Positions 559-36,372 of a stretch of DNA of 40,508 nucleotides are shown here, piece by piece. Under the pieces are notes generated by a model. It saw only the letters and a list, made by a program, of their open reading frames with translations. It searched no databases and was not told where the DNA came from. The DNA comes from a virus. Its lineage: Duplodnaviria > Caudoviricetes. Position numbers and translations under genes: made by a program. Position 1 is the first letter of the stretch, and every line of letters starts with the position of its first letter. The stretch spans positions 1 through 40,508 of IMG/VR virus record IMGVR_UViG_3300017700_000577. One strand, written 5' to 3'.

Positions 559-911
559 TAGGATTCCTCCCGGAGTTGCCCTGAGGCGACGCCTTCGGCG
601 CTGGTCAACGGGCACGCCGCTACGGCGGAAAGAAGCTCGCGGCGGATATCGCTCGTAAGCCACTTGCTGTGGTGGTATCGGCGATGATCTTTCTCGTACC
701 GATGCTCGGCATGGCGGGAGCCGCTTAGAGCCCACATCATGTCGCGTTTGACGATGCGCTTCAGGCCCGGATTGCGGTCGCGCGCCTTCCAGCCTTCACG
801 GAAGGCAGCGGAAAGATCGGCTTCAGTGAAGCGCGCCCCCTCCAGCTTGACGCCTGCGTCCGTGTGTCGCCCATGTAGCGACACGCTGGGATCAGCTCCG
901 GGATGAATCAT
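558..911 (-). CDS. Hypothetical protein bracketed by inverted cassette-boundary elements
   Basis: ORF with GGAGGAG RBS; stop overlaps the gcrA start; both ends encoded by repeat elements. Confidence 0.6.
   Translation of the reverse strand: MIHPGADPSVSLHGRHTDAGVKLEGARFTEADLSAAFREGWKARDRNPGLKRIVKRDMMWALSGSRHAEHRYEKDHRRYHHSKWLTSDIRRELLSAVAACPLTSAEGVASGQLREES
563..614 (+). repeat. Dispersed hairpin boundary element (right end of gene 558-911)
   Basis: ATTCCTCCCGGAGTTGCCC followed by hairpin CGCC-TTC-GGCG and closing GGGCA. Confidence 0.8.
838..908 (-). repeat. Dispersed hairpin boundary element (left end of gene 558-911)
   Basis: Minus strand ATTCATCCCGGAGCTGATCCC, then hairpin GTGTCGC-TACATGG-GCGACAC. 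37/43 nt identical to 8334-8376. Confidence 0.8.
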
Positions 912-1077
912 CTTCTCCTCCAATTACATTAGGGTTGTCACCAGCCTTGATGGCGGCTTCGACGCGCTCCTCTAGGTCTCCCGACCAGAACTTGTCAGCC
1001 CGCCAATCGCGAACATCTTTCAAAACCTGAAGCATCATTTCAAACGCTACGGCTCTCTTGCTGCCTTTCATGGTCAT
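892..1077 (-). CDS. Hypothetical protein
   Basis: Coupled ORF in the leftward operon; ends with helix LEERVEAAIKA typical of small phage proteins. Confidence 0.55.
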   Translation of the reverse strand: MTMKGSKRAVAFEMMLQVLKDVRDWRADKFWSGDLEERVEAAIKAGDNPNVIGGEDDSSRS

Positions 1078-1574
1078 CGTGTCTCCAGTCCTTCAGCAGC
1101 CAGCGCCAGAATCTGCCGCGCTACGCCGTCGTCCATCAGCCAGAAGACGCCATCGGGGCCTTCCACGCAGAGGATTTCGCTTCCAGCCTTGAGTGTCAGC
1201 AGGCTTTTCAGACCGGGGACGCGCTCAAGGCTTTTCACCTCAATTTTCAGCCGCATGTCGCCAAGGCGTGCGACAATATCCGTATCAAACCCCTTCTCCG
1301 AGTTGCGCGATGCGGTGGCGCCGGAGCCTGCCGTTTGCTGGGCAAGAAGGCCCGAACCCGTCAGCATCCGAACAGCCCGCTTCTCGCCGCGATCACCCTT
1401 CTTGCGGGTGGCCTCTATGGTCTTGAAGCCAACGCCTCCAAATGCCGGTTTAGCAGGCGGAGGAGGCGTGCAGCCGCAGACCTTGACCCGGCGCTTGCTC
1501 GGCCCCTTCCAACGGAACATCTCGCGACATTCGTCGCAGATTTCGGGGAAGACGCTTTCGCCTACGGAGGTCAT
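1074..1574 (-). CDS. Holliday junction resolvase-like PD-(D/E)XK nuclease with N-terminal Cys cluster
   Basis: KGDRGEKRAVRML...DIVA...IEVK motif; CDEC/CGC at the N-terminus; start taken at the ATG overlapping the upstream stop. Confidence 0.7.
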   Translation of the reverse strand: MTSVGESVFPEICDECREMFRWKGPSKRRVKVCGCTPPPPAKPAFGGVGFKTIEATRKKGDRGEKRAVRMLTGSGLLAQQTAGSGATASRNSEKGFDTDIVARLGDMRLKIEVKSLERVPGLKSLLTLKAGSEILCVEGPDGVFWLMDDGVARQILALAAEGLETR

Positions 1575-1843
1575 TGAGCAGGCGTTCCAGCGAGGCCACA
1601 GAAGCCTTTCGCGGAGTTCGCGTAAGTCAGGCTGCCATCCGTGTGCCGGAGGGGATCGGACGCCGGATGCGTCTCTCGCCACGCCATGCATCCTGATCCG
1701 AGGCAAATGGACATTTTGTTGACGTCGAAGCGATTAGCCGACGCTATGGCAACGGGGCTCTTGCGTCCACTCATCTCCTCATCAATCGACACCATCTGGC
1801 GCGCGAACGGGCACCACTTCGTCTTGGCTTCGTCCTCGGTCAT
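1571..1843 (-). CDS. Cys-rich hypothetical phage protein
   Basis: MTEDEAKTKWCPF...C.GS.CMAWR...GFCGLAG pattern, a recurrent small phage family. Confidence 0.65.
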   Translation of the reverse strand: MTEDEAKTKWCPFARQMVSIDEEMSGRKSPVAIASANRFDVNKMSICLGSGCMAWRETHPASDPLRHTDGSLTYANSAKGFCGLAGTPAQ

Positions 1844-1850
1844 CTTCTTT

Positions 1851-1893
1851 CCAGTGCAAAAACAGGTTGCGGGGTCGTGGTCCCGGGATGAGC
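1851..1893 (-). repeat. Dispersed boundary element
   Basis: Minus strand GCTCATCCCGGGACCACG...TTTTTGCACTGG between a stop codon and the next start; resembles 34941-34988. Confidence 0.65.
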
Positions 1894-2069
1894 TACTTGC
1901 CTAGTTCCTGACGAAGCTGGGCATGGGTAATCTCCGCCAGCTTCATACGGGCCTGCCCTAGCCTGCGGTCGTCGTTGTCGTATTCAGCTTCACGAACAGC
2001 CTTCATGGCTTCGGCGCGCTGGTGGCGGATCGAGGGTGTGGGACGATTGAACCAAGGCCAACCGAACAT
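1893..2069 (-). CDS. Small hypothetical protein (58 aa, MFGWPWFNRP...)
   Basis: Read manually; ATG overlaps the upstream TGA; below the ORF-track cutoff. Confidence 0.55.
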   Translation of the reverse strand: MFGWPWFNRPTPSIRHQRAEAMKAVREAEYDNDDRRLGQARMKLAEITHAQLRQELGK

Positions 2070-2380
2070 CACGCATCCTCCCTGACAGGCTCAGTGATGG
2101 GGCGCTTGATAGGCCTCAAGAGGGAGGGAAGGAAATCCTCACGAGGACGGTGAATCAGCCTGAACTCACAAGCAGCGCAGCGAACCGCAGAATATGGCTC
2201 GTCCGGATCTCCGACCAACACGAGCCCAGCCCCGGGATCGTTGCACTCCGCGCAGGGTTCGCAGCCTCCCTCGATACGGCAGACGCGGCGAATCGAGCCC
2301 CTCCCCACAGCGGGAAGATCCAAGTAGGCGTCGATGTCCCGGACGGCTTCTACGAAATCCCCAGGTCCGATATCGCTCAT
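2069..2380 (-). CDS. Hypothetical protein
   Basis: Coupled ORF with CxxC motifs; MSDIGPGDFVEAV start. Confidence 0.6.
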   Translation of the reverse strand: MSDIGPGDFVEAVRDIDAYLDLPAVGRGSIRRVCRIEGGCEPCAECNDPGAGLVLVGDPDEPYSAVRCAACEFRLIHRPREDFLPSLLRPIKRPITEPVREDA

Positions 2381-2565
2381 CCCTTCACCCTCCGCGCCTC
2401 TAGCGCTTCCATAGATAGCTTGACGACCTCCGGTATCTCGCGTTTCCCTGTCGCGTATCGCCAGATGGTCACACGGTCGATGCCAAGGACTCCGGCCAGC
2501 TCGGTTTTCCAGCCATGACGCCCGTAGAGGCGCTTGCCGGCGGTCTCGAAATCAGAAGCTTTCAT
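2377..2565 (-). CDS. Small XRE/Cro-like HTH DNA-binding protein
   Basis: W.TELAGVLGIDRVTIWRYATGKREIP helix-turn-helix; first gene of the leftward operon. Confidence 0.75.
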   Translation of the reverse strand: MKASDFETAGKRLYGRHGWKTELAGVLGIDRVTIWRYATGKREIPEVVKLSMEALEARRVKG

Positions 2566-2629
2566 GTGATGAAGACTACACGAAACGATTAGGGCTGCAA
2601 TCTTTTTGTTCCGGTCCGTAATTTCCGCG

Positions 2630-2657
2630 TTGACACCAGAAACGTATGCGGTAGGTT
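2630..2657 (+). promoter_or_regulatory. Putative sigma70 promoter of the rightward early operon
   Basis: TTGACA-N16-TAGGTT in the divergent intergenic gap, followed by GGAGAG RBS and ATG 2682. Confidence 0.55.
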
Positions 2658-2681
2658 GGGATCAACAAACGGAGAGACCAG

Positions 2682-2924
2682 ATGCAACTCCTTCCCGACA
2701 CCCCGGCCTTCGAACAGTTCCTGACCGACAACCTCGGCAGCGACTACGAAGACGCCGCCAAGGAAGACCTTCTCGCCGACATGCACAGCTGCATGATCTG
2801 CGGGCACCTGTTCACCTCGGCTCAGGATTTTGAGCCTGACGCGCGGGACGTGTTCGGCGAATGGGTGTGCAACGATTGCGATGCTCTGGGCTCGCATGAT
2901 CCTGTTGGAAAGGATGGGTTCTGA
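2682..2924 (+). CDS. Small zinc-ribbon protein
   Basis: CMIC...CNDC; good RBS. Confidence 0.65.
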   Translation: MQLLPDTPAFEQFLTDNLGSDYEDAAKEDLLADMHSCMICGHLFTSAQDFEPDARDVFGEWVCNDCDALGSHDPVGKDGF

Positions 2925-3088
2925 TGACCTTCCCCCGCGACCACGACACCGATCAGAGCTTTTGCCCCGAGTGCGGCGAGCCCTGCGACACTGGCCCGAG
3001 CGTTGAGGCCTTCGAAGAGCTTGGCGAGGTTATGTGCGGAGACTGTGCCTCTGCCGCCCTCGCTGGGAAGAAGCTGGAGGGGGTTTAG
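2924..3088 (+). CDS. Small zinc-ribbon protein (54 aa)
   Basis: Read manually: CPEC...CGDC; coupled to both neighbours. Confidence 0.6.
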   Translation: MTFPRDHDTDQSFCPECGEPCDTGPSVEAFEELGEVMCGDCASAALAGKKLEGV

Positions 3089-3409
3089 ATGGCCTCCCGG
3101 AAGCTTTCACAGACGGCCGGTGTCAAGCCGAGACTGACAACGGCGCGCCTCCGCATCCTGACCGCCGCTATGGCCTCGCCGTTGGGCGTGGTGACGCGAC
3201 CGTACATGACGGGTTTTGAGCGCGTCGCTTGGGATCGCAACGCCAGAACGCTCTGCGATGCCGGGTGGCTCACAGAGTACGTCCATGGCGGCTTTGAGGT
3301 CACGGCCGCCGGTCGGGCCTCTGCCATGGAGCGCCACCAAGCGGATGCTGTCCGTGAGGGTGACCTTGAAGTCGGCGCGGGCGTCGCTTGTCGGGACCCC
3401 CTGCAATGA
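3089..3409 (+). CDS. Winged-helix-like hypothetical protein
   Basis: L.DAGWL......FEVTAAGR wHTH-like C-terminal motif; GGAGGGG RBS. Confidence 0.6.
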   Translation: MASRKLSQTAGVKPRLTTARLRILTAAMASPLGVVTRPYMTGFERVAWDRNARTLCDAGWLTEYVHGGFEVTAAGRASAMERHQADAVREGDLEVGAGVACRDPLQ

Positions 3410-3494
3410 TCCGCTTCCTCACCACCCCTAACCGTTGGGCCTCTGCCCTTGTGACGGTTGCTCTTCTTGCTGCTGCTGGAATGGGAATTGTGAA

Positions 3495-3866
3495 ATGAGT
3501 AGTGACGCGCCGTCCCCTACCCAAGAACACAAGACGCATGCGGATATACTAACCGCCGCTGCTGATCTGCTGGAGAAGCCGGGCGCTTGGACGCAGGGAT
3601 GCTTTGCTCGCGACCAGAGCGGCAAGCCATCCGCTCCAAGAGATCCAGACGCGGTCTGCTACTGCATGGCCGGCGCGATCTACAGCATCGTGGGCACGAA
3701 CAGCCGGGGCGACGCGCTCATTGACGTCTTGAGCACGAGGGCGCGCCGACAGGGTTTTCGCCACATCGCGCACTGGAACGACAAGGAGAACCGCACTCAA
3801 GCCGAAGTCGTCTCCGCTCTCCGCGCTGCTGCTGACCTCGCCCGCACCGAACAGGTGAAGGGATGA
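3495..3866 (+). CDS. Conserved phage hypothetical protein (DUF6197-like)
   Basis: L.AAADLLE...WTQG...YC.AGAI...WND...RTQAEVV.AL pattern. Confidence 0.65.
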   Translation: MSSDAPSPTQEHKTHADILTAAADLLEKPGAWTQGCFARDQSGKPSAPRDPDAVCYCMAGAIYSIVGTNSRGDALIDVLSTRARRQGFRHIAHWNDKENRTQAEVVSALRAAADLARTEQVKG

Positions 3867-4108
3867 GTTCGTCCCAGACTATCCCGTCTTCGGGCTCTAC
3901 GAGCGCCGACCCGACAAGCAGCCTCCTACTGGTCTCCCCCGTAGTCTCTGCTCTGGCCTATACGATCACAGCAGAGGCCCGGCGGGTTGATCTGGCGGCT
4001 AACGCCCGGAGCATGACGCCAGCCGTCAGGGAGCATCTTCGGAAGGATCTGGAGAAGCTCATCCAGGCTGCGCTTACCCTCATGGACGAGGTGAGCGGCG
4101 ATGCCTGA
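3863..4108 (+). CDS. Hypothetical protein
   Basis: ATGA-coupled ORF; N-terminus encoded by a boundary element. Confidence 0.55.
   Translation: MSSSQTIPSSGSTSADPTSSLLLVSPVVSALAYTITAEARRVDLAANARSMTPAVREHLRKDLEKLIQAALTLMDEVSGDA
3867..3915 (+). repeat. Dispersed boundary element at a gene start
   Basis: GTTCGTCCCAGACTATCCCGTCT then hairpin TCGG-GCTC-TAC-GAGC-G-CCGA. Confidence 0.7.
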
Positions 4109-4283
4109 CCCTCTCCTCTGGATGGGCAGGGTTCACCAGCCTTGGGACCTCCCAAAGCTCAGGCGTGATCGGGAGTGGTACGAGAGGCTTTCCAAGTCTC
4201 CCGATCAGGTCGTTGGAAACATGTACGCCGAATGGACGGAGCGTCTGTCGGCTGTGATCGAACAAACGGAGAAGATGCAGTGA
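4101..4283 (+). CDS. Hypothetical protein
   Basis: Coupled ORF directly upstream of the ERF gene. Confidence 0.5.
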   Translation: MPDPLLWMGRVHQPWDLPKLRRDREWYERLSKSPDQVVGNMYAEWTERLSAVIEQTEKMQ

Positions 4284-5011
4284 CCGCCACCGTTCCCAGT
4301 GTTTACAAGACGATTGCTGCCGTCATGGCGGATATCGCCAAGGAGGGGATCGCCAAGGACTCCCGCAACCAGCAACAGGGCTATAACTTCCGAGGCATCG
4401 ACTCCGTTTATAATGCCCTGGCTCCGATCCTGTCCCGTCACGGCCTGATGATGCTCCCTCGCGTGCTGGCCCGTGAGGTGGTCGAGCGCGCGACCAAAAG
4501 CGGCGGGGTTCTGTTTTACGTCACCGTTGACGTGGAATTCACGCTGGTCTGTTCGGAAGACGGGTCGGCGCACGTGATCAAGACCTACGGCGAGGCTATG
4601 GACAGCGGCGACAAGGCCACCAATAAGGCCATGAGCGCGGCCTACAAGTATGCGGCCATGCAGGCCTTCTGCATCCCCACTGAGGGCGACAATGACCCTG
4701 ACGCCACCACGCACGAGGTGGTCGCCAGTCGCGGTCCTGATGTCTCTGGGGGCGGTCCTGACTGGTGGGGCTGCTCGACGCCCGGCATGAGCGCCAGCGC
4801 CGCCAAGAAGGAAGGGCTGGGCGAGAAGTTCGATGAATGGCGCACCGAGATTGCCGCCCTGACTGCCGGCGCTGAATGGAGACAATGGTGCAAGGACCAC
4901 AACGAAGAGATCGCCAAGCTGCCGAAGTCGTGGCGGGTGATCCTTCGCGAGGAAGCGGAGGCGATGGCGGTGGAGCTGGGCGTGGACCTGACCAACCGCC
5001 GGAGCGAATAG
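4280..5011 (+). CDS. erf: ERF-family single-strand annealing protein
   Basis: IAKD..N.QQGYNFRGID...GEAMDSGDKATNKAMSAAYKYA..Q.F.IP..D.DPD motif; GTG start overlapping the upstream stop. Confidence 0.85.
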   Translation: MTATVPSVYKTIAAVMADIAKEGIAKDSRNQQQGYNFRGIDSVYNALAPILSRHGLMMLPRVLAREVVERATKSGGVLFYVTVDVEFTLVCSEDGSAHVIKTYGEAMDSGDKATNKAMSAAYKYAAMQAFCIPTEGDNDPDATTHEVVASRGPDVSGGGPDWWGCSTPGMSASAAKKEGLGEKFDEWRTEIAALTAGAEWRQWCKDHNEEIAKLPKSWRVILREEAEAMAVELGVDLTNRRSE

Positions 5012-5138
5012 ACACACCCCAGGTCATAGCAGCCCGTGCTTTCTGCAAAGCCATTCTGCGAGAGTTCCCGGGTACGACTTTAACCGTAGTAGAAGCGAAG
5101 GAGCGGCGGGGTCCTAACAAGCCCCGCCTGTTCGCCAA

Positions 5139-5471
5139 GTGACAATCGAGATTCCAGACTCCCACGTTCAACGCGCCTTCGATGTGCTGCGTTCGGGGGA
5201 GCACGCGCAGGCCCGCGCCGCGTATGAGTTCTCCGAAAAGCAGTTGAAGGTTGTTCTCGCCAAGGAAGAACTGGCCTGCGACGCTAAGACGGTTGGCGAG
5301 CGTCAGGCCTACGCGCTGGCGTCGGAGGCCTACGAGAAGGCTATGGCAGATCACCGGCTAGTCGCCGAGTCCTACTATCACTGGAAGGATAGGCGCGATG
5401 CGGCGTCGGCGATTTTGGATGCGTGGCGAACCTTGAGGAGCGATGAGAGGGCGTTGGGGAAAGTGGGTTGA
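5139..5471 (+). CDS. Helical hypothetical protein of the recombination module
   Basis: Coiled-coil ORF ending in I.DAWRT..S..R, commonly found next to phage annealases. Confidence 0.6.
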   Translation: MTIEIPDSHVQRAFDVLRSGEHAQARAAYEFSEKQLKVVLAKEELACDAKTVGERQAYALASEAYEKAMADHRLVAESYYHWKDRRDAASAILDAWRTLRSDERALGKVG

Positions 5472-5495
5472 CGTAGCGATGTTGCGGGGATAGCT
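5468..5495 (+). promoter_or_regulatory. Putative internal sigma70 promoter
   Basis: TTGACG followed 16 nt later by TAGCTT in an intergenic gap, before GGAGAG RBS and ATG 5524. Confidence 0.45.
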
Positions 5496-5523
5496 TCGTT
5501 ATGACAATTGCTGGAGAGAGCAG

Positions 5524-5856
5524 ATGACCACTTTTACTCCCGGGCCTTGGATTGAGTTGGACACGGAATCATCCGTCGATCTTGCTGGCGTCTCGGGCTG
5601 GCAGGATATCGGCGTAGAAGGTGGGAACGTAGTCGCCATCGCGGTAGGCTTTGCCGCGCCCTACTGGCACGAGAAGAGTCTAAAGGCCAACGCCAGCCTC
5701 ATTTCCGCCGCCCCTGATCTGTTGGAGGCGCTGAAGGAAGCGGTTGAAGACCTTGAGGCGACCCTGCGCTGGCGCGGCGAAGGATGGGAGTGCACCGAGG
5801 ACGAACTGCTCGGCAACGCCCGCGCCGCCATCGCCAAGGCGGAGGATCGGCAATGA
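5524..5856 (+). CDS. Conserved phage hypothetical protein (TPGPW/ANA.LI.AAPDLLEAL family)
   Basis: Characteristic TPGPW and ANASLISAAPDLLEAL motifs. Confidence 0.75.
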   Translation: MTTFTPGPWIELDTESSVDLAGVSGWQDIGVEGGNVVAIAVGFAAPYWHEKSLKANASLISAAPDLLEALKEAVEDLEATLRWRGEGWECTEDELLGNARAAIAKAEDRQ

Positions 5857-6161
5857 CCTACACCTCCCCCACCCGCGCCGAAGCCGCAGAACAAACCCGC
5901 CAGCGCCTTCTCCGCGCCGCTCGTGCCGAGTTCCTCGCTAAAGGATGGCGGGGATCTACGGTTCGCTCAATCGCTCGCAGGGCCGGGCATTCAACAGGTG
6001 CGTTCTTCGCTCACTTCACGGGGAAGGACGATGCCTGGGAACAGGCTACGGGGTTCCTGACGCCTGATCAGTGGGCCAAAGATGTGCTCAAGACCCTGTC
6101 CGATGGGAACGAAGTGACCAAGACGGGCAACTCCGGGATGAACAAAGAGGCATTCAAATGA
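5853..6161 (+). CDS. TetR-family HTH-only protein
   Basis: TRQRLLRAARAEFLAKGW..STVRSIARRAG.STGAFFAHF.GKD; lacks a ligand-binding domain. Confidence 0.8.
   Translation: MTYTSPTRAEAAEQTRQRLLRAARAEFLAKGWRGSTVRSIARRAGHSTGAFFAHFTGKDDAWEQATGFLTPDQWAKDVLKTLSDGNEVTKTGNSGMNKEAFK
6094..6143 (-). repeat. Dispersed boundary element at the end of the TetR gene
   Basis: Reverse complement GTTCATCCCGGAGTTGCCCGTCTTGGTCACTTCGTTCCCATCGG. First 23 nt identical to 9718-9740; similar to 34054-34104. Confidence 0.85.
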
Positions 6162-6991
6162 ATACTCAAACCCTTCCTAATACTAGGGAAGCCGTGGCTC
6201 GGTTGAACGAGCTGTGTCTCGGCACCGCTGTTGCGGCCCGTTGGGGCGAGTCGTCGGCCTATCTTTCGTGCGAGCGGCACGATGTGGAGACCGCCCTCCT
6301 TGCCTATGGAGAGTTGGTTGAGGCGGTGGCGTCCGCTGCCGATCAACTGGACGCTGCTGCGAATGCGCTCAACGATCGAAGGGCATACGAATCCGCTGAA
6401 GATTGCGAAATCCACGCCCGTGTCGCCCGCTCCCTCCTCCTCCGTCTTAATGGGGATGTAGGGGTCAGCCCGGAGTCGCCCGTCTCGCCCAAGAGCGAAT
6501 GCACGCCCAGCACTTCGGTGGAGATAGACCGGGAAGACGCAGCGGCCATCGTCCACGAGGCCATGCGTTGGGCGGTCCAATGCGCGCCTGATAAGAACCC
6601 GCCCTTCTGGGTCGATGGGGGCAATTCCTTCGTCCAAGACCGCGCTCGCAGGGCTGTGGCCGCCATCTTCGATCTGTCCAGCGCAGAACTGACCGCTCAG
6701 GGCGTGGTCCCGGGACGACCTAATCCCTCCCCCAAGAGCGAATGTGAAGGCGGCTCTCCGGTGGAGGGGCGAGACACCACGCGGCTGGACGCTAGCGACC
6801 TGACCGACGACGAGCTTCGGGCCGAACAAGGCCGCGTCGAGAAGCTTTGGGACAGCATGTTCGAGTCCGACGAAGACGGCGAAGTCTTCGAGGGTCGCGG
6901 CGGCTCTCCGGGCGAATGGATGCAGGAGCGCATGGACGAGATCGCCACCGAACAGGCGCGCCGCAGCCTCCCTACCGGAGAATCCCAATGA
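6158..6991 (+). CDS. Mosaic hypothetical protein (three modules joined at repeat elements)
   Basis: Coupled ORF with SPKSEC repeated twice at internal boundary elements. Confidence 0.6.
   Translation: MNTQTLPNTREAVARLNELCLGTAVAARWGESSAYLSCERHDVETALLAYGELVEAVASAADQLDAAANALNDRRAYESAEDCEIHARVARSLLLRLNGDVGVSPESPVSPKSECTPSTSVEIDREDAAAIVHEAMRWAVQCAPDKNPPFWVDGGNSFVQDRARRAVAAIFDLSSAELTAQGVVPGRPNPSPKSECEGGSPVEGRDTTRLDASDLTDDELRAEQGRVEKLWDSMFESDEDGEVFEGRGGSPGEWMQERMDEIATEQARRSLPTGESQ
6463..6501 (+). repeat. Intragenic boundary element
   Basis: GGTCAGCCCGGAGTCGCCCGTCT then hairpin TCGC-CCAAGA-GCGA. Confidence 0.65.
6674..6720 (-). repeat. Intragenic boundary element (inverted partner of 6463)
   Basis: Reverse complement GGTCGTCCCGGGACCACGCCCTGAG; shares TCCCGGGACCACG with the 1851-1893 copy and GCCCTGAG with the 563 copy. 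Confidence 0.6.
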
Positions 6992-7926
6992 CCCCTTCCC
7001 AACCTCTCAACACCGAATGCCAGCCCGGCGGGGCGGTGGATGACCGACGCTGCCCGTTCTGCGGCGGCCCCGGCAAGTTGATCTCGACCATGGGAGAATG
7101 GGTCGGGGTGGGGAACGGCCCGCGCGGCGGGGCGTATGGCCCAGAAAGGCGTCGCATCGTTTGCTCGGCCCTCTATGAGACCCCGTCACGGGCGTGCCCT
7201 GAGGGGCGCATCTGCGACACTGAAGTGGAAGCCTGGGCGGCGTGGAATACTCGCGCCCCCACGATCACCCCTCCGGTGGAAGGCCGCGAGGACATCGAGC
7301 GCGCGGCCTATAAGCGAGGCTGGAGCGACCGCGAGGCGGACATCCTGGAACGCGCCGATGCGATGGGTCTCCCCACCCCTCCGGTGGAAGGGTGGCGGGA
7401 GGCGGTGGCCAAGCTGCGCAAGATCGCCGCCGAAGCAAAGTCGCTGGCCGCCGACCTGAACGCGAAGCCCGACGGGGCGAAGTTCGTCGATCCCGGCATC
7501 ATGCGCATGGCCTACGCCATGGGTGCGAAGTGCGACCACTTTCTTGAGGCCGCCACCATCGTTGAAGCCGCCCTCGCCCTTCCCGCCCCCGCCGTTCAGC
7601 CGGAGGGGTGGCCTGACGCTCGCGCGGTGATCGACATCTGGGCGAACTATCACGGCATCCAGGTCAGCCCGCACCATCGGAACTGCCTGGTTACGGACCT
7701 GAACCTCGCTCTCGCCTCCCCCGACGTTCAGCGTCAAGAGGAGGGGGAAGGCCGAGACGCGGCGCGATACCGCTACCTCCGCGACCGCGATGCTGGACCG
7801 GACGGAGCGCCGCCACCAAGCGGCCTGTTCATCGGTCGCGTCCCTGAGAACCTGATCCTCACCGGCGAGGACGCCGACAGGGCAATAGATCTCGCCCTCC
7901 CCGCCGCTCCGGGAGCCAGAGGATGA
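6988..7926 (+). CDS. Lar-like (restriction alleviation) zinc-finger mosaic protein
   Basis: CPFCGG...C...C...EA.AAWNTR N-terminal domain; C-terminal DAARYRYLR...DRAID module. Confidence 0.65.
   Translation: MTPSQPLNTECQPGGAVDDRRCPFCGGPGKLISTMGEWVGVGNGPRGGAYGPERRRIVCSALYETPSRACPEGRICDTEVEAWAAWNTRAPTITPPVEGREDIERAAYKRGWSDREADILERADAMGLPTPPVEGWREAVAKLRKIAAEAKSLAADLNAKPDGAKFVDPGIMRMAYAMGAKCDHFLEAATIVEAALALPAPAVQPEGWPDARAVIDIWANYHGIQVSPHHRNCLVTDLNLALASPDVQRQEEGEGRDAARYRYLRDRDAGPDGAPPPSGLFIGRVPENLILTGEDADRAIDLALPAAPGARG
7266..7391 (+). repeat. 18-bp direct repeat CACCCCTCCGGTGGAAGG (7266-7283, 7374-7391)
   Basis: Exact copies 108 bp apart, in frame (TPPVEG). Confidence 0.85.
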
Positions 7927-8066
7927 GCGGGGCCTGCACCTGCGGTCTTCCGCGCGCGTGGCCGTGGCTGTCTTGTGGCCGCACGTCTTGCAGCATGACG
8001 CCGTTCATCCTCGCGCAACGATCCGCTGCTCGCGCACGCCGCGCCACCAAGGGAGCCGGGCAATGA
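7923..8066 (+). CDS. Small Cys-rich hypothetical protein (47 aa)
   Basis: Read manually; ATGA overlaps at both ends. Confidence 0.45.
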   Translation: MSGACTCGLPRAWPWLSCGRTSCSMTPFILAQRSAARARRATKGAGQ

Positions 8067-8305
8067 CGGACCTCAAGCCCTCTCCGCTAGCAGCACGGCT
8101 AGCCGCGTTCATAGATGCCGCTCAGAGGGTCTTCGACGCTGAGTACAAGTACGCCGCCGAGCGTGATCGTGGTGCGAACACGACGCGAGACGAAGCGGAC
8201 AGGACCTACGCGCTCCTCATGCTCGACTGGTCGCCCCAACGAGTGCGGCGGCTCCGCAAGGATGTCCTCGCCGCCCTTCCTCTACCTGAGACAGAGGGGG
8301 GATAG
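8063..8305 (+). CDS. Hypothetical protein
   Basis: Start MTDLKP with GGGAG RBS; coupled. Confidence 0.55.
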   Translation: MTDLKPSPLAARLAAFIDAAQRVFDAEYKYAAERDRGANTTRDEADRTYALLMLDWSPQRVRRLRKDVLAALPLPETEGG

Positions 8306-8376
8306 ATGGCATCCGTTGATTCACGCGCACTGGCGCTACAAGGGCGCCACACGGACGTAGACGCCAAGCTGGAAGG
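8306..8376 (+). repeat. Boundary element (left end of the Mom-like cassette)
   Basis: Homologous to 838-908; hairpin TGGCGC/GCGCCA. Confidence 0.75.
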
Positions 8377-8889
8377 CGCCGACCCTTTCACGACGGCCCC
8401 CTGTGGTGGCTCACCAAGGACGGCGACCGCTCCTGCCTCGCCCTCTACCGGCGCCACTACTCGTCGCGGAAGTCTCGGGGAACCTCCAGTCAGTTCGTCG
8501 GCCCCGGCGAGACCATCGTCTTGCGAACCGGGCCAGCAGACGCTGTTTTCGTCTGGCGCAACTTCATCGACGACAGTGGCCAAGATGGCGTCTGCTGCTC
8601 GCTCTTCCGCAACGAGGGGCCGCGCCTATCGTCCCTCCTTATCCGACAGGCTGACGCGGTCGCTGATCACGTCTGGCCTGGTCTGCGGCATTACACCTTC
8701 GTCGATCCGTCAGCTGTCCGGTCAGCCAATCCGGGTGCTTGCTTTCGACACGCTGGCTGGCGGCGATGCGGCCTCACACGGGGAGGGCTGATCGTGTTCG
8801 AGCGCACCACTCCAGAACCCCCGACGGCGATGACCAGCAGCGAAGCTGTCGCCGCACATCTAGCTCCGGGAACTCCTCAAAATGACTGA
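8306..8889 (+). CDS. Mom/GNAT-like putative DNA-modifying protein; ATG and body lie in different frames
   Basis: Frame containing 8401-8889 reads WWLTKDGD...LYRRHYS...YTFVDP..VRS.NPG.CF..AGW, resembling Mom-like phage acyltransferases. The only ATG with an RBS (8306) is one frame off. Confidence 0.55.
8828..8875 (-). repeat. Boundary element (right end of the Mom-like cassette)
   Basis: Reverse complement GAGTTCCCGGAGCTAGATGTGCGGCGACAGCTTCGCTGCTGGTCATCG; homologous to 563-614. Confidence 0.75.
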
Positions 8890-9157
8890 TCGCCCCAACC
8901 CAGACACCCTGTCGTTGGTAGAGAGGCTGAAGTCGCGAGCGGCGTATGATCGCCTCCACTATCCGCCGGCCGACCCGCTCTACATGGAAGCAGCCCAAGC
9001 CCTCCTATCCGCTGAGAAGAGAGAAGCGGAGTTGCTGGCGGCGATGAAGGAACTCGACGCAGTTCTTGGCGAAACACCCATGCCCGACTGTGCGGCCATG
9101 AACCGACTGATCGCAGCTCGCGCCAAGGCCCGCTCTCTCTCAGGAGAAGGAACATGA
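8882..9157 (+). CDS. Hypothetical protein
   Basis: LVERL...EAAQAL coiled-coil small phage protein; coupled. Confidence 0.6.
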   Translation: MTDRPNPDTLSLVERLKSRAAYDRLHYPPADPLYMEAAQALLSAEKREAELLAAMKELDAVLGETPMPDCAAMNRLIAARAKARSLSGEGT

Positions 9158-9429
9158 ACAGGTCCCGGAGTTGCCCAGCGGACGGCAAGCTCGACCCGAC
9201 AGGCTGGAGGAGCATAGAAAGCGCGCCGACAGACGGCACACCTATTGTCGCCGTGGGTCGATGGCCCGACGCTAGAGTGGGCTTCCCCCGTCACGTCCAC
9301 TGGTTGGCCGGAAATTGGCGAGAGCCTGGACGGGGCCTAGGGCCTGCGCTGGTGTGCTGGGCGTGGCATCCGCGAGACGAAACTTGGCCTTCCGAAGGCT
9401 GGACTCCCCCTCCCGAGGCAAAGCCATGA
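9154..9429 (+). CDS. DUF551-like small phage protein
   Basis: W.SIESAP.DGT motif; AGGAGAAGG RBS. Confidence 0.65.
   Translation: MNRSRSCPADGKLDPTGWRSIESAPTDGTPIVAVGRWPDARVGFPRHVHWLAGNWREPGRGLGPALVCWAWHPRDETWPSEGWTPPPEAKP
9159..9207 (+). repeat. Boundary element at a gene start
   Basis: GGTCCCGGAGTTGCCC immediately after the ATG. Confidence 0.65.
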
Positions 9430-9707
9430 TGGTTTCGGTAGAAGACGCGGCCTCCGAAATCGGCATCGACGAAGGCGTCCTTAGAGACAACGCCGTGCTT
9501 GGGGGCGCGCCCAAGGGTTACGGCCCGTTCCGACGTGTCGAAGGCTCATGCTTCCGCATCATGATCGATATGGAAGACGCCGTCCTCTGGGATGCCGCCG
9601 GGCGACCGATTGCGTCGAGTGCCTACCGCGATCCTCCTCGGGACCCGAAGCGCACGCAACGATCCCTCATAGCCCGCCTATTCTCCCGTCCCGAGGCAAG
9701 GCCATGA
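9426..9707 (+). CDS. Hypothetical protein, possible excisionase-like HTH
   Basis: MVSVEDAASEIGID N-terminus resembles MerR/xis-type HTH; flanked by a 19-bp direct repeat. Confidence 0.45.
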   Translation: MMVSVEDAASEIGIDEGVLRDNAVLGGAPKGYGPFRRVEGSCFRIMIDMEDAVLWDAAGRPIASSAYRDPPRDPKRTQRSLIARLFSRPEARP

Positions 9708-9717
9708 GCAGGGTTTA

Positions 9718-9766
9718 GTTCATCCCGGAGTTGCCCGTCTCTGTCGTTTCACTCCAGACTGAGATG
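9718..9766 (+). repeat. Boundary element upstream of the tRNA
   Basis: GTTCATCCCGGAGTTGCCCGTCTCTGTCGTTTCACTCCAGACTGAGATG; outer CATC...GATG inverted ends. Confidence 0.85.
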
Positions 9767-9834
9767 AGGTATAAGAAGGCGTCGCGAGAGAGTCCGTATC
9801 AAGTCGGCTTGCGGCGCATTTAGAGATCGTTAGT

Positions 9835-9910
9835 GCGGTGGTAGCTCAACAGGATAGAGCGCCCGTTTCCTAAATGGGATATTCAGGTTCGAGTCCTGAC
9901 CAGTGCGCCA
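9835..9910 (+). tRNA. tRNA-Arg (anticodon CCT)
   Basis: Cloverleaf: D arm GCTC/GAGC with A20, anticodon stem CCCGT/ATGGG with loop TTCCTAA, T arm TCAGG-TTCGAGT-CCTGA, encoded CCA. One G:G mismatch in the acceptor stem. Confidence 0.88.
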
Positions 9911-9911
9911 G

Positions 9912-10124
9912 CTACTTCTTCCCGGCCTCAGCCAGCTTGGCCACCACCCGCGCATAATCCGCGTCGTTGATCGCCTGAAGCTCCGAGAGCATGGCCTGCA
10001 AAGCCTCTTCATCATCCGATGATAGAGCAGCCTTCGCATCCGACAGGACTTCCATCCCCGTCTTCACCCACTGAACACCCTGAGTCACCAGAGCCAGCGC
10101 ACGTTCGATTTCAGCGGCGGTCAT
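9912..10124 (-). CDS. Small helical protein at the end of the lysis cassette
   Basis: Last gene of the late arm; ATGA-coupled to the lipoprotein gene. Confidence 0.65.
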   Translation of the reverse strand: MTAAEIERALALVTQGVQWVKTGMEVLSDAKAALSSDDEEALQAMLSELQAINDADYARVVAKLAEAGKK

Positions 10125-13962: not shown

Positions 13963-13963
13963 G

Positions 13964-24463: not shown

Positions 24464-24696
24464 TAAACCGCCCCTTTGACCGGATGCCAAGCGCCGTCCG
24501 CATCGTCGTAAACATACGCGGTATAGGGGTCATTGCCGAGATAGGCGACGCGCAGGATCACAATCCGTCCGTTCCAGCCAAAGGCCTCGCCATCGGAAAC
24601 CGGAATCGCCGGCAGGGCATCCTCGATCTGGGGAAGCCCGACGTTGATCTGTCTGCGGGATAGCTCCCAGCTCTGCCCCTGCCGCACCCGTGTCAT
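24463..24696 (-). CDS. Small hypothetical structural protein
   Basis: Coupled between the adaptor and nozzle genes. Confidence 0.5.
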   Translation of the reverse strand: MTRVRQGQSWELSRRQINVGLPQIEDALPAIPVSDGEAFGWNGRIVILRVAYLGNDPYTAYVYDDADGAWHPVKGAV

Positions 24697-25406
24697 CAGG
24701 TCGGACCGGGGAAGTTCCCTTGCGGGATGTTGTCAAACGGCCAGTAGTAGTTGCGCCCGGAGATGTCGATTTCCGTGTTGCCGCCGTCGCGGGCCTGTAC
24801 CTGAGCCTTCTGCCGCTCATAGGTCCGCATCGCTTCGGCGTAGTCGAGCCCCTTGGCCGCCAGGAACCGCCAGCGCAGGCCGTACTGGAGCAGGTTGGCG
24901 TCCAGATACGACGTGTCCGTGTCCGCGAGGAACGTCGTCTGAGGCACGCCCAGAGCCGACAGCGCCCATTTGTTGCTGATGTACTCGTAGGCCAATTCGT
25001 GACCTACCGGAGGTGTAGGCTGGATCAGGATTTCACCGCCCTTCTGCACCCAGCCGAGGAACACGCTGGCATAGACAGGCTGGGCCTTGATCGCCTGCCA
25101 TTGCTGCGGGGTCAGCGGCCCGATCATCTGCCGCTGCCCCGTCCTGTCAAACTGCGTGTTCCCGATGAAACGGTCGATATCATCGGGAAGCCCCAGCGGC
25201 TGCTCCTCATCGGCCACAGTCGTATAGAGCCACGTCCGGTTCAGAGCTTGCCACGGGTAGGAGCGATAGAGTTCGTTGCCCTCTTCCTTGAGCAGGGCGA
25301 ACAACTGCCGAACCTGCTGGTCGGTGGAGTTCACCACCGTCAGCGGGCGCGGAATGCTGATGCTGTCCGCCATCGACTGCACAATTTCAAGGACTGTACT
25401 CGGCAT
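24696..25406 (-). CDS. Head-tail adaptor (tubular A-like)
   Basis: TVLEIVQ...WQAL...LP.D...GLRWRF..AKGLDYAE pattern; synteny. Confidence 0.7.
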   Translation of the reverse strand: MPSTVLEIVQSMADSISIPRPLTVVNSTDQQVRQLFALLKEEGNELYRSYPWQALNRTWLYTTVADEEQPLGLPDDIDRFIGNTQFDRTGQRQMIGPLTPQQWQAIKAQPVYASVFLGWVQKGGEILIQPTPPVGHELAYEYISNKWALSALGVPQTTFLADTDTSYLDANLLQYGLRWRFLAAKGLDYAEAMRTYERQKAQVQARDGGNTEIDISGRNYYWPFDNIPQGNFPGPT

Positions 25407-26817: not shown

Positions 26818-26838
26818 GTCTTTGATTTCCTTCAGGAA

Positions 26839-27810: not shown

Positions 27811-27821
27811 CGTTTACGTCC

Positions 27822-31484: not shown

Positions 31485-31540
31485 GAACGCCCCTGAGTTG
31501 CCCGAGTTTACCAATCGGGCCGATATTGTCCATAGAGATG

Positions 31541-33109: not shown

Positions 33110-33569
33110 GAGCCCTCAGCTGGTCCTCTGTGAGCGCACCCAGATCAAGGGAGGCGTTCGATTGAATCGGCGCGCCATCGGGGCCGCTGATCTCCTGGGC
33201 CTTCACGTCACGCCAGTCCGCCGCCTTACGGTTCTTCAGCCAGAAGATTGCAGCCGTGGTGTCTGGCGCGATCTTCGCACGATACGGGGCGTACACGGGA
33301 GCCGTGGCCCCGGCAGGCATGAAGATCTTCACCTCATCCTGCTCGTAGCCGATAGCCTTCTGGTACAGGCTGCGCTCTACCCGCTCATCGGCGGGAGCCT
33401 TCCCCGCTTTTAGGGCCTGACAAAACGCGGGGTGGTCATGCGACCAGCGATAGACGGTGCGAACGTCGATATCGAAAAAGTCCGCCACCTCGATATCGGT
33501 AGCGCCTAGCTTGGCAAGCTTCATGGCCTGCTCGGCGTAGATGTCCTGGTATTTGCTGGGGCGGCCCAT
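33081..33569 (-). CDS. terS: Terminase small subunit
   Basis: MGRPSKY...GATD.E.ADFF...AAIFWLKNR...WRD...GPDG.PI. Confidence 0.88.
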   Translation of the reverse strand: MGRPSKYQDIYAEQAMKLAKLGATDIEVADFFDIDVRTVYRWSHDHPAFCQALKAGKAPADERVERSLYQKAIGYEQDEVKIFMPAGATAPVYAPYRAKIAPDTTAAIFWLKNRKAADWRDVKAQEISGPDGAPIQSNASLDLGALTEDQLRALASIRVPTE

Positions 33570-33793
33570 TAGTCGTCCTTGACCGGCAGAATCTCATCCA
33601 TGCTGGCGCGACGAAACAGCCGCGAGGGCTGCAATTTGACCGTGATATCCATCTGTCTTCCTTGTCCAAGCTAGCCTTGCGCCGCAGCTCTTTGCTTAGT
33701 TGGACGGGTTGAGAATGCCAGCGTCGGGCTGGTCGGTCAAGTTAGGTCGAGCGACGGCCTGCTGTTTGTTGTTTCCCCGGGTCGGAGCGCTGG

Positions 33794-34039
33794 TCATGTG
33801 CACCCGTCACAGTGACTGCAATCGTAAACGGATAGGTCTGGGCACTCCGAAATCTGACGGTAACGCACGCGGCAAGCGCTGATAGCCTCTCGCTGCCCCT
33901 TGTACCACTTCTTGCTTGTGCAGGATCTGGCCTCTAGCCAGTTGGGGTCGGACGGGCCTGTGCGCTTTTTCTCCTTTTGGAACTTCTTGTGCTTCAGCGC
34001 CCTATCGCGCTTGAAGGAGCCGTAGAAGCTTTTAGCCAT
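33794..34039 (-). CDS. Basic Cys-containing hypothetical protein
   Basis: C..KKWY...A...Y.C.HC.G pattern; start immediately after a boundary element. Confidence 0.6.
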   Translation of the reverse strand: MAKSFYGSFKRDRALKHKKFQKEKKRTGPSDPNWLEARSCTSKKWYKGQREAISACRVRYRQISECPDLSVYDCSHCDGCT

Positions 34040-34053
34040 TTGCTGTTTCCCTT

Positions 34054-34104
34054 GTTCATCCCGGATCTAACCCGTCTTGGTCGTCTTGCTCCCATCGGGA
34101 AGGG
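34054..34104 (+). repeat. Dispersed boundary element
   Basis: GTTCATCCCGGATCTAACCCGTCTTGGTCGTCTTGCTCCCATCGGGAAGGG; collinear with the 6094-6143 copy. Confidence 0.82.
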
Positions 34105-34186
34105 CGTGGCGGGCTTCGGCATCCAGTGGGTCGGACGTCGCAGTGCGTAATCATCACTTTGGCCCCTCATGGGGACGGGCAATCCC

Positions 34187-34369
34187 TCAGAAGGCTGGCT
34201 CAGAGCGACTCGGACTAGGCCCCGCCTGGTGAAGGATATAGGTTGCTGGATCATGTCGGATGCCGGAAACGAAGACCTCCTGCTCCAGCAGGAGGCATCC
34301 GTTCTTGCTGATGCGTCGCAGGCATTCCTCGATCAGCTTTTGGTCGGATAGTTCATCCACGAGCCTCAT
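34187..34369 (-). CDS. Hypothetical protein
   Basis: ATGA-coupled ORF. Confidence 0.45.
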   Translation of the reverse strand: MRLVDELSDQKLIEECLRRISKNGCLLLEQEVFVSGIRHDPATYILHQAGPSPSRSEPAF

Positions 34370-34578
34370 GTCGATAGCGCCGGATCGTCGTCATGAGCCC
34401 ACCCCATGCGTCCGATATGCTGGCCACACGCCGCGCATCGCATAAGAGGGAAGTCGCTCACACGGTCCTCGGTAAGCGTGTAGGTCTTGTTGCGGCAAGA
34501 GGCGCAGGCAACGAAGGCCATTGCGTCATCAACCGTGTGCGGAGATTTAAACTCCAGCCTAATAACGTTGTCGTTCAT
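34366..34578 (-). CDS. Small zinc-ribbon protein
   Basis: CASC...CAAC. Confidence 0.6.
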   Translation of the reverse strand: MNDNVIRLEFKSPHTVDDAMAFVACASCRNKTYTLTEDRVSDFPLMRCAACGQHIGRMGWAHDDDPALST

Positions 34579-34663
34579 CGTTATCGCCCCTTAGCAAGTC
34601 GGTAGATGCACGCCAGAGCGAAAGCCATGATCGCCGCAGCTACGATAAACTCAAGGGCGTCGC

Positions 34664-34936
34664 TCATGCCTGTTCCTTTGCGGGTTCGTAGAGGGAGTGG
34701 AACTCGTCGTCGGTGACCGCGAACATGTTGGCCCCTTCCTTCACGAGCCATTCGCCGACATAAGCGCAGTCGTCAGTCGCAACGATGTCGAGGCACGGCT
34801 CACCCTTGGCCGTTGTGCCGTGCGCCAGCCTCCCATCCCTCAACGCCTCAACAGCCCATACAGGGTCCTCCTGCTGGTCATGGCCTCCTGTCCATTGGAA
34901 GGCTTCTATGAGTTGGGGTTTTCTTTGGTAGAGCAT
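34664..34936 (-). CDS. Conserved phage protein (Y.RKP..IEAFQW / PGDYG-like)
   Basis: YQRKP..IEAFQW...VGEWLVK...F...YE motif. Confidence 0.7.
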   Translation of the reverse strand: MLYQRKPQLIEAFQWTGGHDQQEDPVWAVEALRDGRLAHGTTAKGEPCLDIVATDDCAYVGEWLVKEGANMFAVTDDEFHSLYEPAKEQA

Positions 34937-34940
34937 TAGT

Positions 34941-34988
34941 ATTCATCCCGGGATTTGTCACTGGCGTGCGGTTTTGCACTGAAGATGG
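34941..34988 (+). repeat. Dispersed boundary element filling an intergenic gap
   Basis: ATTCATCCCGGGATTTGTCACTGGC-GTGC-GGTTTT-GCAC-TGAAGATGG. Confidence 0.7.
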
Positions 34989-35183
34989 CTAGCCGCGCTC
35001 TTCGTATTGGGTGATTATTTCCTCGATGCACTTATCGCGGCTAGCGCAATGTCCGTACATCCAGCCCGGCGACTCCCCATCAACGTCTTCGTGCTGGTAG
35101 TGCCAGTCACAGTTGCGCGTACCGATGGGCGGCGGATCGAACCAGATGCGCCACGGACCTATCGTGGTGTCGTGCGCGCTCAC
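34989..35183 (-). CDS. Small conserved phage protein (PPIG.RN.DW)
   Basis: W.I.FDPPPI..RN.DW motif; GTG start with GAGG RBS. Confidence 0.6.
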   Translation of the reverse strand: MSAHDTTIGPWRIWFDPPPIGTRNCDWHYQHEDVDGESPGWMYGHCASRDKCIEEIITQYEERG

Positions 35184-35938
35184 GGCTTTTCCTCGCAGAA
35201 AATCCCGCACTCCGGCATCTTCAGGCTCTTGAGCGCGCGTCCTTTGGCGTCGGCGGGCAGTTCGTCCAGATAGATGCGGCGGTTCTTATGGCGAACCAGC
35301 TTGGCCCCGATTCGGCGTGACTGCTCAGCCCTGGCGGCGAACACATCCGGGTCAACGGCGCGAACAAGATTCCAGTACGTCGGCGACGTGGCCTTCACAC
35401 AGCCCTTGCAGTTGGCGTTCGGGTAGCCCTGCGAATAGGACCGAGGAAGCGTTAGGCCTGCCGCTGTGATGTGGTCGAAGCAATCCTGCTTCGTCATGCC
35501 CGCATCAATGAGAACCGGCAGCACGTTGTTGCGCTCGGTCAGCGTGAACCTGTTGTGTCTCGCCGCCTCCTCAGCGGTAAAGCCTAGGACGTGCCAATCA
35601 ACGTGGACTTCCTTCTCCCAAAGCTGACGCGCCTCTTTCTTCAGCTTGATCGTGCATGGCGCGCCGAGCGGACCGCTCATAAAGGCGCGGTCATCCCATA
35701 CATCGACCGCGCTGTTGGTCGGGTAGCGCGGGTTAGATGCAAACTCGATAGGCCACCGAAGCCACTCAGACACGTCACGCAGAAAGCGGTTGTTGTCATT
35801 GTCTTCTTCGACGACCGGGTTGTTGACGATGCGCACCGTGTGCGTGCTGGCGTACTTGTCGAGCGTCAGCTTGGCCGCCATCGCGGATGCTGCGCCGCAG
35901 GAAAACCAGACGGCGATTGTTTCCTTCCTGTCGCTCAC
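35180..35938 (-). CDS. PAPS-reductase / PP-loop family protein
   Basis: WFSCGAAS, CT.KLK, GFT.EE..R, GY.NANC.GCVK and C-terminal ECGIFC. Confidence 0.75.
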   Translation of the reverse strand: MSDRKETIAVWFSCGAASAMAAKLTLDKYASTHTVRIVNNPVVEEDNDNNRFLRDVSEWLRWPIEFASNPRYPTNSAVDVWDDRAFMSGPLGAPCTIKLKKEARQLWEKEVHVDWHVLGFTAEEAARHNRFTLTERNNVLPVLIDAGMTKQDCFDHITAAGLTLPRSYSQGYPNANCKGCVKATSPTYWNLVRAVDPDVFAARAEQSRRIGAKLVRHKNRRIYLDELPADAKGRALKSLKMPECGIFCEEKP

Positions 35939-36372
35939 GCCTTCCCCTCCAGCTTATCTAGCTCTGCGACTAGGTGAGAATGGCGTTTCTTGGATTTGCG
36001 CAGCCTTTCAATCTCGGCGATTAGGCTAAACCGGAGAGAGGACACAGCTTTCTCGCTTTCCCAGGACTCATCCTCCGCACAGATCGTGTCCACGTCTTGT
36101 TGTGGGATGGGGTTTGAGCGGTAGGTGGTTGTATTTGCAGGCTTTTTGTTCGTCCCGGAGTTGCCATTCGCGAGGCTCTTGGCCTCGACTTCCACGGGCC
36201 GGCCATCTGGACCTGGGGCGTAGTTGGCCACGGTCATGGGACGATCTAGCGGGTACAGGATGTCCACACGGCTCCCCTCAGAACCTGCGTCCACAAGCTG
36301 GGTGATGCGCTCGGAGTAGGCCGCGCTGCTGTCCGCCTTCTTCCCGAACAGTTGCTTGATGAAGTTGATCAT
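35935..36372 (-). CDS. Mosaic hypothetical protein
   Basis: AGGAG RBS; internal boundary element read through in frame. Confidence 0.55.
   Translation of the reverse strand: MINFIKQLFGKKADSSAAYSERITQLVDAGSEGSRVDILYPLDRPMTVANYAPGPDGRPVEVEAKSLANGNSGTNKKPANTTTYRSNPIPQQDVDTICAEDESWESEKAVSSLRFSLIAEIERLRKSKKRHSHLVAELDKLEGKA
36148..36199 (+). repeat. Intragenic boundary element
   Basis: GTTCGTCCCGGAGTTGCC then hairpin CGAGGC-TCTTG-GCCTCG. Confidence 0.75.

Follow-up and report, generated by a model that had tools for sequence, protein, structure and literature searches.

The window analysed here, 40,508 nucleotides from IMG/VR record IMGVR_UViG_3300017700_000577, is a complete circular record of a tailed phage (Caudoviricetes) with 40,385 unique bases and a 123-nt overlap of its ends. 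It encodes a terminase, a portal, head and ejection-type proteins, the annealing protein ERF, HNH nucleases, a DNA methylase and, at 7-558, a GcrA-family cell-cycle regulator (PF07750, E 1e-19), the last of which indicates an alphaproteobacterial host. Prophage-like matches to the window (ERF at 73%, and one true copy of the element described below) lie in a holdfast-bearing family reached via HfaB, which we infer to be the Caulobacteraceae. Scattered through the accessory regions of the phage is a repeat of roughly 60-75 bases. Its consensus comprises the outer flank WWKD, a head RTTCRTCCCGGRG, a box of 6-8 nt, a variable and often hairpin-prone middle and, in some copies, a CTGGA tail. The initial annotation had described this repeat as a family of hairpin elements at gene boundaries and proposed that they are recombination sites for gene cassettes.

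We scored the window with a position matrix covering -4 to +19 and trained on 38 copies from 13 other phage records only, so that the window itself was held out. The matrix recovered 11 sites at 16.2-29.7 bits (563+, 908-, 1893-, 3867+, 6143-, 6463+, 6720-, 9718+, 34054+, 34941+ and 36148+), and the next best place reached 10.1 bits. Across 60 Markov-shuffled genomes, the mean number of places above 15 bits was 0.18 and the maximum 1. A plain 11-mer with two mismatches gave a mild excess, with 29 matches in the window against 16.5 expected (maximum 27). The repeat family is real and has at least eleven copies in the window, all of them listed in the initial annotation; the other five sites on that list are decayed or weak. 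The site given there as 9159, whose true register is 9158, scored 7.1 bits, rising to 15.3 bits once window copies joined the training, and the sites at 8875 (register 8876), 8306, 3092 and 3400 scored below 0 bits. The 8306 copy is linked to the family through 49 nt at 84% identity to the 908 copy; those at 3092 and 3400 are supported by resemblance and position only. The sites and the genes associated with them are as follows, with scores from the held-out matrix.

558..911, minus strand: orphan gene between 563+ and 908-, an inward pair; candidate cassette of 346 bp
563..637, plus strand: antisense copy of the element, 3' end of gene 558-911; 25.3 bits; inward partner of 908-
835..908, minus strand: sense copy of the element, 3 nt past the ATG of gene 558-911; 25.0 bits; hairpin z -2.0
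1846..1893, minus strand: element copy between two genes; 16.2 bits
3091..3140, plus strand: doubtful decayed copy at the start of gene 3089-3409; below 0 bits; hairpin z -2.3
3360..3401, minus strand: doubtful decayed copy at the end of gene 3089-3409; below 0 bits; resemblance by eye only
3867..3935, plus strand: sense copy of the element, 4 nt past the ATG of gene 3863-4108; 18.1 bits
6070..6143, minus strand: element copy, antisense, that forms the C-terminal extension of TetR-type gene 5853-6161; 27.6 bits
6463..6523, plus strand: element copy with CCAAGA loop at a domain junction within gene 6158-6991; 20.2 bits; inward partner of 6720-
6670..6720, minus strand: element copy within gene 6158-6991, closing a 258-bp in-frame module; 20.8 bits
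8303..8380, plus strand: decayed-head copy forming the N-terminal extension of gene 8306-8889; 84% identity with the 908 copy over 49 nt; absent in homologues
8306..8889, plus strand: mobile gene of wide distribution (phrog_24928), flanked by 8303+ and 8876-; probably read via a -1 frameshift at 8383-8389
8809..8876, minus strand: decayed-head copy at the 3' end of gene 8306-8889; -0.5 bits; hairpin z -2.2; CTGGA tail
9158..9212, plus strand: copy whose head is partly decayed, 4 nt past the ATG of gene 9154-9429; 7.1 bits; tail present
9718..9760, plus strand: element copy past the last early gene, upstream of a tRNA; 29.7 bits
34054..34104, plus strand: antisense copy of the element, 15 nt upstream of gene 33794-34039; 22.3 bits
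34941..34990, plus strand: antisense copy of the element, 5 nt upstream of gene 34664-34936; 23.4 bits
36148..36213, plus strand: element copy, antisense, at a junction within gene 35935-36372; TCTTG loop and CTGGA tail; 25.9 bits; hairpin z -1.3
4280..5011, plus strand: ERF single-strand annealing protein (PF04404, E 2e-22; phrog_155); candidate for secondary homology-driven swapping

Several copies are woven into the signals of neighboring genes. The reverse strand of the 563 copy carries the ribosome-binding site of the GcrA-like gene, and the tail of the 1893 copy provides that of gene 1571-1843, whose homologues align from residue 1; the element is absent from the two other upstream regions inspected. 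The 908 copy comprises head, hairpin and CTGGA tail. Protein searches with gene 558-911, the cargo of the 563/908 pair, found no homologue except itself, and those with the cargo of 6463/6720 found no relatives. Three 40-nt direct repeats (6484-6523, 6727-6766 and 7002-7041) also lie at domain junctions, two of them with the CCAAGA loop, and those at 6727-6766 and 7002-7041 resemble headless remains of the element. A single tRNA-Arg(CCT) at 9835-9910, the only Rfam match in the window, separates the lysis genes from the early region and is 117 nt downstream of the 9718 head.

The 15 window sites used all fall in accessory regions and outside the 23.7-kb block of lysis, virion and terminase genes, and a called start codon is found within 30 nt of ten of them. 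We then examined a wider sample of 54 sites in 14 phage or prophage records, the window included, picked by eye from matrix and pattern hits. Excluded before counting were G001 21203, which reads as the ribosome-binding site and start of ERF, two likely chance matches (G005 12625 and G014 30804) and pattern hits in core genes; G002 320, an orthologue of G010 56496, was omitted from column statistics, and the CCAAGA loop was not counted because it is partly a product of the search design. In this sample, 24 heads lie within 30 nt of a start codon, compared to 8.0 expected (maximum 17), and 26 copies are sense and 28 antisense by automatic gene calls, some of which are wrong. The head begins 2-13 nt after the start in 12 of the 26 sense copies and 3-63 nt before the next start in 20 of the 28 antisense copies, indicating that the head is outermost and the remainder points into the gene. 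As initially described, copies are enriched at gene boundaries and occur in both orientations and in different frames (all three are seen), where they encode peptides as different as IHPG, SRSC, NSGMN and SSQTIPS. These observations support a constraint on DNA rather than on peptide.

The outer edge of the element is sharp. Among 25 pairs of similar copies, 24 share no more than 7 nt beyond the head, the sole exception being an orthologous pair, while the inner break varies from position 19 to 46. Immediately outside the head, WKD is present at 39 of 51 sites, compared to 10.9 (maximum 19) at matched offsets from other start codons. Because these outside bases differ between copies yet obey WKD, we read them as a target preference. 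The inner CTGGA tail, 30-90 nt in, is found at 15 of the 54 sites against 4.6 expected (maximum 12).

Folding is a tendency of the element, not a rule. Over 53 sites the mean z score was -0.77, compared to -0.09 in 159 control windows, with both strands alike, and z reached -1 or below at only 6 of the 15 window sites. RNAalifold found no consensus pair among the copies, and covariation on one specified stem was not significant (31 of 500 shuffles, on a poor alignment). The claim of a hairpin element survives as a bias. Symmetry of the outer arms gave nothing firm, with a best z of 3.3 at spacer 3 and no fixed spacer, and the flank at -4 to -1 showed no clear complementarity to the hairpin foot among 700 position pairs, such as the guide tetranucleotide of IS200/IS605-type (HUH) ends would have with its cleavage site.

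The sites also tend to face each other. Neighbors within 1 kb form 11 inward-facing pairs, compared to 6.3 when strands are shuffled within genomes (p = 0.008), or 10 against 5.4 when the four weak window sites are left out, and 16 of 23 close neighbors are opposite in direction. The inward pairs span 258-930 bp around one or two genes or a domain, and the cargo of different pairs is mutually unrelated. The ends of one pair are more alike than ends across pairs (mean 4.1 versus 0.1, standard deviation 5.7, 13 pairs). We found no target duplication in 13 pairs (score 31, null 33.2), perhaps as flanks have been exchanged since insertion. The inward pairing, the conserved WKD flank and the inner CTGGA tail had all gone unnoticed in the initial annotation.

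Comparisons between phages place several boundaries of gene gain or loss at the element. Gene 8306-8889 has 80 viral and 2 plasmid relatives, and the window's element is absent from all 65 other distinct contexts of this gene, whose homologues have no element-derived ends. One homologue, in a 27.6-kb record (L185), is enclosed by an inward pair with a different GTTC head and WKD-type flanks; this second head type, GTTCGGTCGCT, is at 2687-3215 (G978 24345-24873), and only two such copies were found in the record. Sites resembling the integron attC site flank homologues in L256 (directly upstream), L246 and, as judged by eye, L202. For the TetR-type gene 5853-6161, the alignment with a prophage homologue covers residues 8-71 of 102 and ends where the element begins. 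Gene 8306-8889 also contains the heptamer CCCTTTC, of the -1 slippery type, at 8383-8389, where it joins the leader frame (from 8306) to the conserved phrog_24928 frame. In 9 of 66 contexts, counting the window, this heptamer occurs shortly before the conserved part, which suggests a conserved programmed frameshift.

Two carriers, G002 and G010, are 88% alike over long structural stretches. In an exchanged region (G010 50392-61232) they share 14 collinear islands of 25-139 bp and 86-100% identity, located at gene or domain junctions between unrelated genes, with all the intervening sequence replaced, and two of these islands hold the element. At one of them, two unrelated HNH-type genes terminate in almost the same element, whose inner end is where homology stops. 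At the other, 17 differences fall in the first 40 bases of the element and 6 in the 98 flanking bases. The recombination genes beside the swapped region are only 70-72% alike, and a TnpB (IS605 OrfB) gene lies among the swapped modules at G010 57938-59176. A low-depth contig of the source run carries a hybrid copy, with a 6143-type head and a 908-type tail over another 19-nt middle. The idea that breakpoints map to the element is thus borne out by the homologues of gene 8306-8889, the TetR homologue and the HNH-type genes, and fails for the remaining swap islands. The predicted excised circles or inversions were not seen for positions 1-10000 in assembled contigs of the probable source run, which drop rare variants.

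Outside the window, the element occurs in 13 further phage or prophage records, found through IMG/VR pattern scans and one genome scan. Exact 20-mers searched against 185,579 species genomes gave 22 hits in unrelated taxa, one of them real: a 41.8-kb phage-like contig of 66% G+C with six copies (G014:C44, L062), in a Flavipsychrobacter assembly and probably mis-binned. Matches of exact element sequence in bacterial genomes were mostly chance coding hits. Cultured phages and plasmids contained no match, a metagenome scan gave only two records, equal in length to G005 and G007, a head-plus-tail scan gave 35 hits and no new carrier, a tail scan matched in a scaffold gene only, and 12 loci with portal-gene relatives held no convincing copy. 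The family therefore extends to other phages, as had been anticipated; a host repeat family was not found in the genomes sampled.

Given the fixed outer edge, the loose flank preference, the two orientations and the inward pairs, a pattern that site-specific cassette ends would explain best, we tentatively favor, at close to even confidence, the reading that the sites are the two inverted ends of small non-autonomous gene cassettes, whose joining to new DNA by a putative recombinase would take place at the head's outer edge. The sharp edge and the flank preference argue for an enzyme with a fixed point of DNA joining. Another element or the host would presumably supply this enzyme, which would bind the head and use low-specificity targets with WKD on each side, and a circular intermediate would join heads back to back. 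Our guess is a tyrosine recombinase that would leave no duplication; Tn916-type elements use a tyrosine recombinase and make no target duplication. Cassettes landing at gene junctions without stopping translation would be kept, giving rise to in-frame N- or C-terminal extensions. Exchange of cargo inside unchanged ends and the hybrid copies would be best explained by later homologous exchange: resident copies may double as 20-45-bp homology for annealases, which would swap cargo inside the ends and yield hybrid copies and orphan single ends. The cassette-site proposal of the initial annotation is thus retained in part, namely the DNA-level constraint, the gene boundaries, the presence in other phages and the coinciding boundaries of gain and loss. 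Its attC-like structure, its special role for ERF and its recombinase or HUH partner are not.

A number of observations weigh against the cassette reading. Over half of the 54 sites are unpaired, and inward versus outward pairs taken alone number 11 to 5 (p = 0.11). These sites are related rather than independent, and their gene calls are automatic and sometimes wrong. An exact pair of empty and filled sites was not found. In 12 of 66 contexts, gene 8306-8889 is flanked by direct repeats of 13-69 bp (among them L187, L192, L206, L211, L215, L226, L228 and L247), so the same cargo moves by direct repeats. The other 12 of the 14 islands in G002/G010 lack the element, and in the HNH-type case cargo changed within an unchanged end, for which homology suffices without a special enzyme. 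The search for an enzyme was also negative. We detected no tyrosine recombinase/integrase domain (PF00589) among window proteins and no gene common to all 14 carrier records, the best being shared by 9 of 14. Among 134 of 142 proteins near sites (the 8 omitted were judged packaging or virion genes) there were only ordinary prophage integrases, annealases and one TnpB, with no candidate enzyme and no Y1 domain; no recombinase or HUH gene was seen to accompany the element as expected. A back-to-back junction of heads gave 15 hits in IMG/VR, none element-like, which is weak evidence because circles need not occur among viral contigs. Finally, a search for a host counterpart in two holdfast-bearing families gave 0 of 262, 2 of 401 (control 3) and 28 of 251 genomes. 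The last amounted to 30 hits (control 10), never more than two per genome, and none of the 29 inspected resembled the element. The one clear prophage copy in a host-family genome (G686) is single and forms an N-terminal insert in a common gene family.

The single copies make a serious rival of the view that each copy is a free, selfish mini-element of 65-80 bases, comparable to miniature transposable elements with inverted repeats (MITEs) or repetitive extragenic palindromes (REPs), with a strong head end and a decayed inverted CTGGA end, which inserts singly in either direction. Copies would survive near start codons, and pairs would arise by chance, by selection or as composite units. The G686 insert, the tail in 15 of 54 copies and the sharp outer edge, which fits an element end, are consistent with this. 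We nevertheless consider it unlikely, as inward pairs exceed the strand-shuffled expectation, the ends of a pair resemble each other, target duplication is absent, 39 of 54 sites lack the tail and no high-copy family or parent insertion sequence appeared in the sampled host-family genomes (none with matching ends was seen in the 29 of 30 host-family hits inspected or in 22 collection hits, which are samples only). A quite improbable alternative is that no site-specific enzyme is involved and that annealases both spread the copies and use them as passive boundary homologies. The islands between unrelated genes in G002/G010, the hybrid copies and the presence of annealases in carriers fit this, and 23-27 bp suffices as a minimal pairing segment for Red-beta (PMC3945230). 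However, flanking DNA should then travel along, whereas the match stops within 7 nt of the head in nearly all pairs, and such a process neither places copies in both orientations at new sites lacking homology nor produces a preferred flank. Nor is a special role for ERF supported, because the annealase differs among carriers, being of the ERF, RecT or Rad52 type.

Heads near start codons, a degenerate flank typical of protein contacts, reversed heads able to act as a ribosome-binding site or start, and the TetR-type and other helix-turn-helix proteins encoded in the window would all suit a role as operator, contacted by some DNA-binding protein of phage or host, or as a signal controlling translation, like the stoperators or start-associated sequences of mycobacteriophages. 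With sense and antisense copies in nearly equal number, homology reaching 25-75 nt past the head, copies within coding domains, no promoter or terminator match at the sites and no regulator common to all carriers, this is very unlikely. Chance or a shared peptide linker is barely credible: the bare 11-mer is only mildly enriched and most exact matches in bacterial genomes are chance coding hits, but the 16-30 bits reached with the held-out matrix, and the occurrence on both strands and in three frames, speak against it. The held-out matrix excludes chance for the 11 strong sites; chance may yet account for 3092 and 3400.

Relaxed homologous recombination explains how phages swap genes, but not the first capture of single unrelated genes or domains with clean boundaries. 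The element is a definite sequence with a fixed edge that marks such boundaries at many places, in both orientations and even inside genes. Should an enzyme act on the element, the two would represent a new recombination system with loose target needs; if none does, the element still offers a clear natural example of boundary sequences traceable across phages. That alphaproteobacterial phages have their own gene-capture system, in which a recombinase would insert any gene or domain in frame between inverted GTTC-headed ends at gene junctions, is a broader claim that we regard as possible but doubtful. If true, accessory and multi-domain proteins would be built anew, and the L185 head type would suggest a wider family with lineage-specific ends.

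We found no match to an already described repeat family in Rfam, cultured phages, plasmids or the literature searched, which left most subscription papers outside; the supplementary repeat and MITE catalogues of PMC3733652 and PMC11602168 could list it. The element can nonetheless be set beside known systems. Like integron attC sites, it places accessory genes between variable, fold-prone sites, and phage-borne attC arrays may also lack an integrase (PMC9892861). It differs in having no GTTRRRY/RYYYAAC cores and no consensus fold, and in that sites face each other rather than occurring once per cassette in the same direction. A strict attC pattern with folding matched the window once, at 19003-19106 within a virion gene, and at none of the element sites, which confirms the absence of cores noted initially. 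With no consensus structure, no significant covariation and neighbors that face each other, an attC-like, structure-defined site is not supported. REPs tagged with GTAG or CGTC, the CGTC families being alphaproteobacterial, share a four-base tag (here GTTC/ATTC) and head-outermost dimers, but are palindromes of 20-40 bp in which the tag is immediately followed by an 8-9-bp stem, and they reach high copy number on chromosomes (PMC3733652). The element has no stem after the head, no genome with more than two hits among 251 and no chromosomal family in the genomes searched. Neither "GTTC" nor "phage" occurs in the main text of PMC3733652.

Short sequences dispersed through phage genomes also mark sites of gene exchange elsewhere. 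In lambdoid phages, dispersed boundary sequences lie where related phages exchange genes, and at the Z/fun locus of P2 variable phage genes reportedly lie between inverted repeats, with site-specific exchange proposed. That locus is said to be one fixed slot in enterobacterial P2-like phages, whereas the element is at many positions and also inside genes. A scan of positions 1-10000 found no promoter-like sequence of the sigma-70 type, other promoter types being outside the scan, and two terminator-like ones, neither at a site. The promoter early stem-loops (PeSLs) of T4-type phages are likewise short sequences dispersed in a plastic region where relatives exchange genes, and their cassettes are units of promoter plus terminator (PMC2839356); the element, by contrast, has no promoter or terminator match, overlaps coding sequence and occurs in both orientations.

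The pdif sites of Acinetobacter plasmids, acted on by XerC/XerD, enclose unrelated genes between inversely oriented sites, often alternating in orientation, with the recombinase provided in trans (PMC6449649). The inversely oriented bounding sites of such modules have their counterpart in the inward pairs. However, pdif sites are 28 bp long in an 11-6-11 arrangement with palindromic inner arms (PMC6449649), whereas the element occurs in phages and its symmetry is weak. Arm complementarity was 3.5 of 11 at the best of 8 spacers, compared to a null of 3.03 (standard deviation 0.22, maximum 3.65). The element is presumably unlike dif in sequence and has, we take it, no dif core. The mycobacteriophage mobile elements MPME1 and MPME2, of about 440 bp, are mobile between unrelated phages and add 6 bp at the left end; like the candidate cassettes, they are small phage-borne units with an open reading frame between inverted repeats (PMC3029335, PMC4351075). 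MPMEs consist of one fixed 123-residue reading frame, whereas the cargo here is arbitrary and unrelated between pairs, and the ends are 60-75 nt, overlap the reading frame of the cargo and number up to 11-16 per genome. Identity with attC, dif, REP, PeSL or MPME was rejected on their defining features (cores, 11-6-11 arms, tag stem, promoter/terminator and fixed reading frame, respectively, are not those of the element). In its manner of working, a gene between inverted ends served by an enzyme in trans, the element would most resemble the MPMEs and dif modules.

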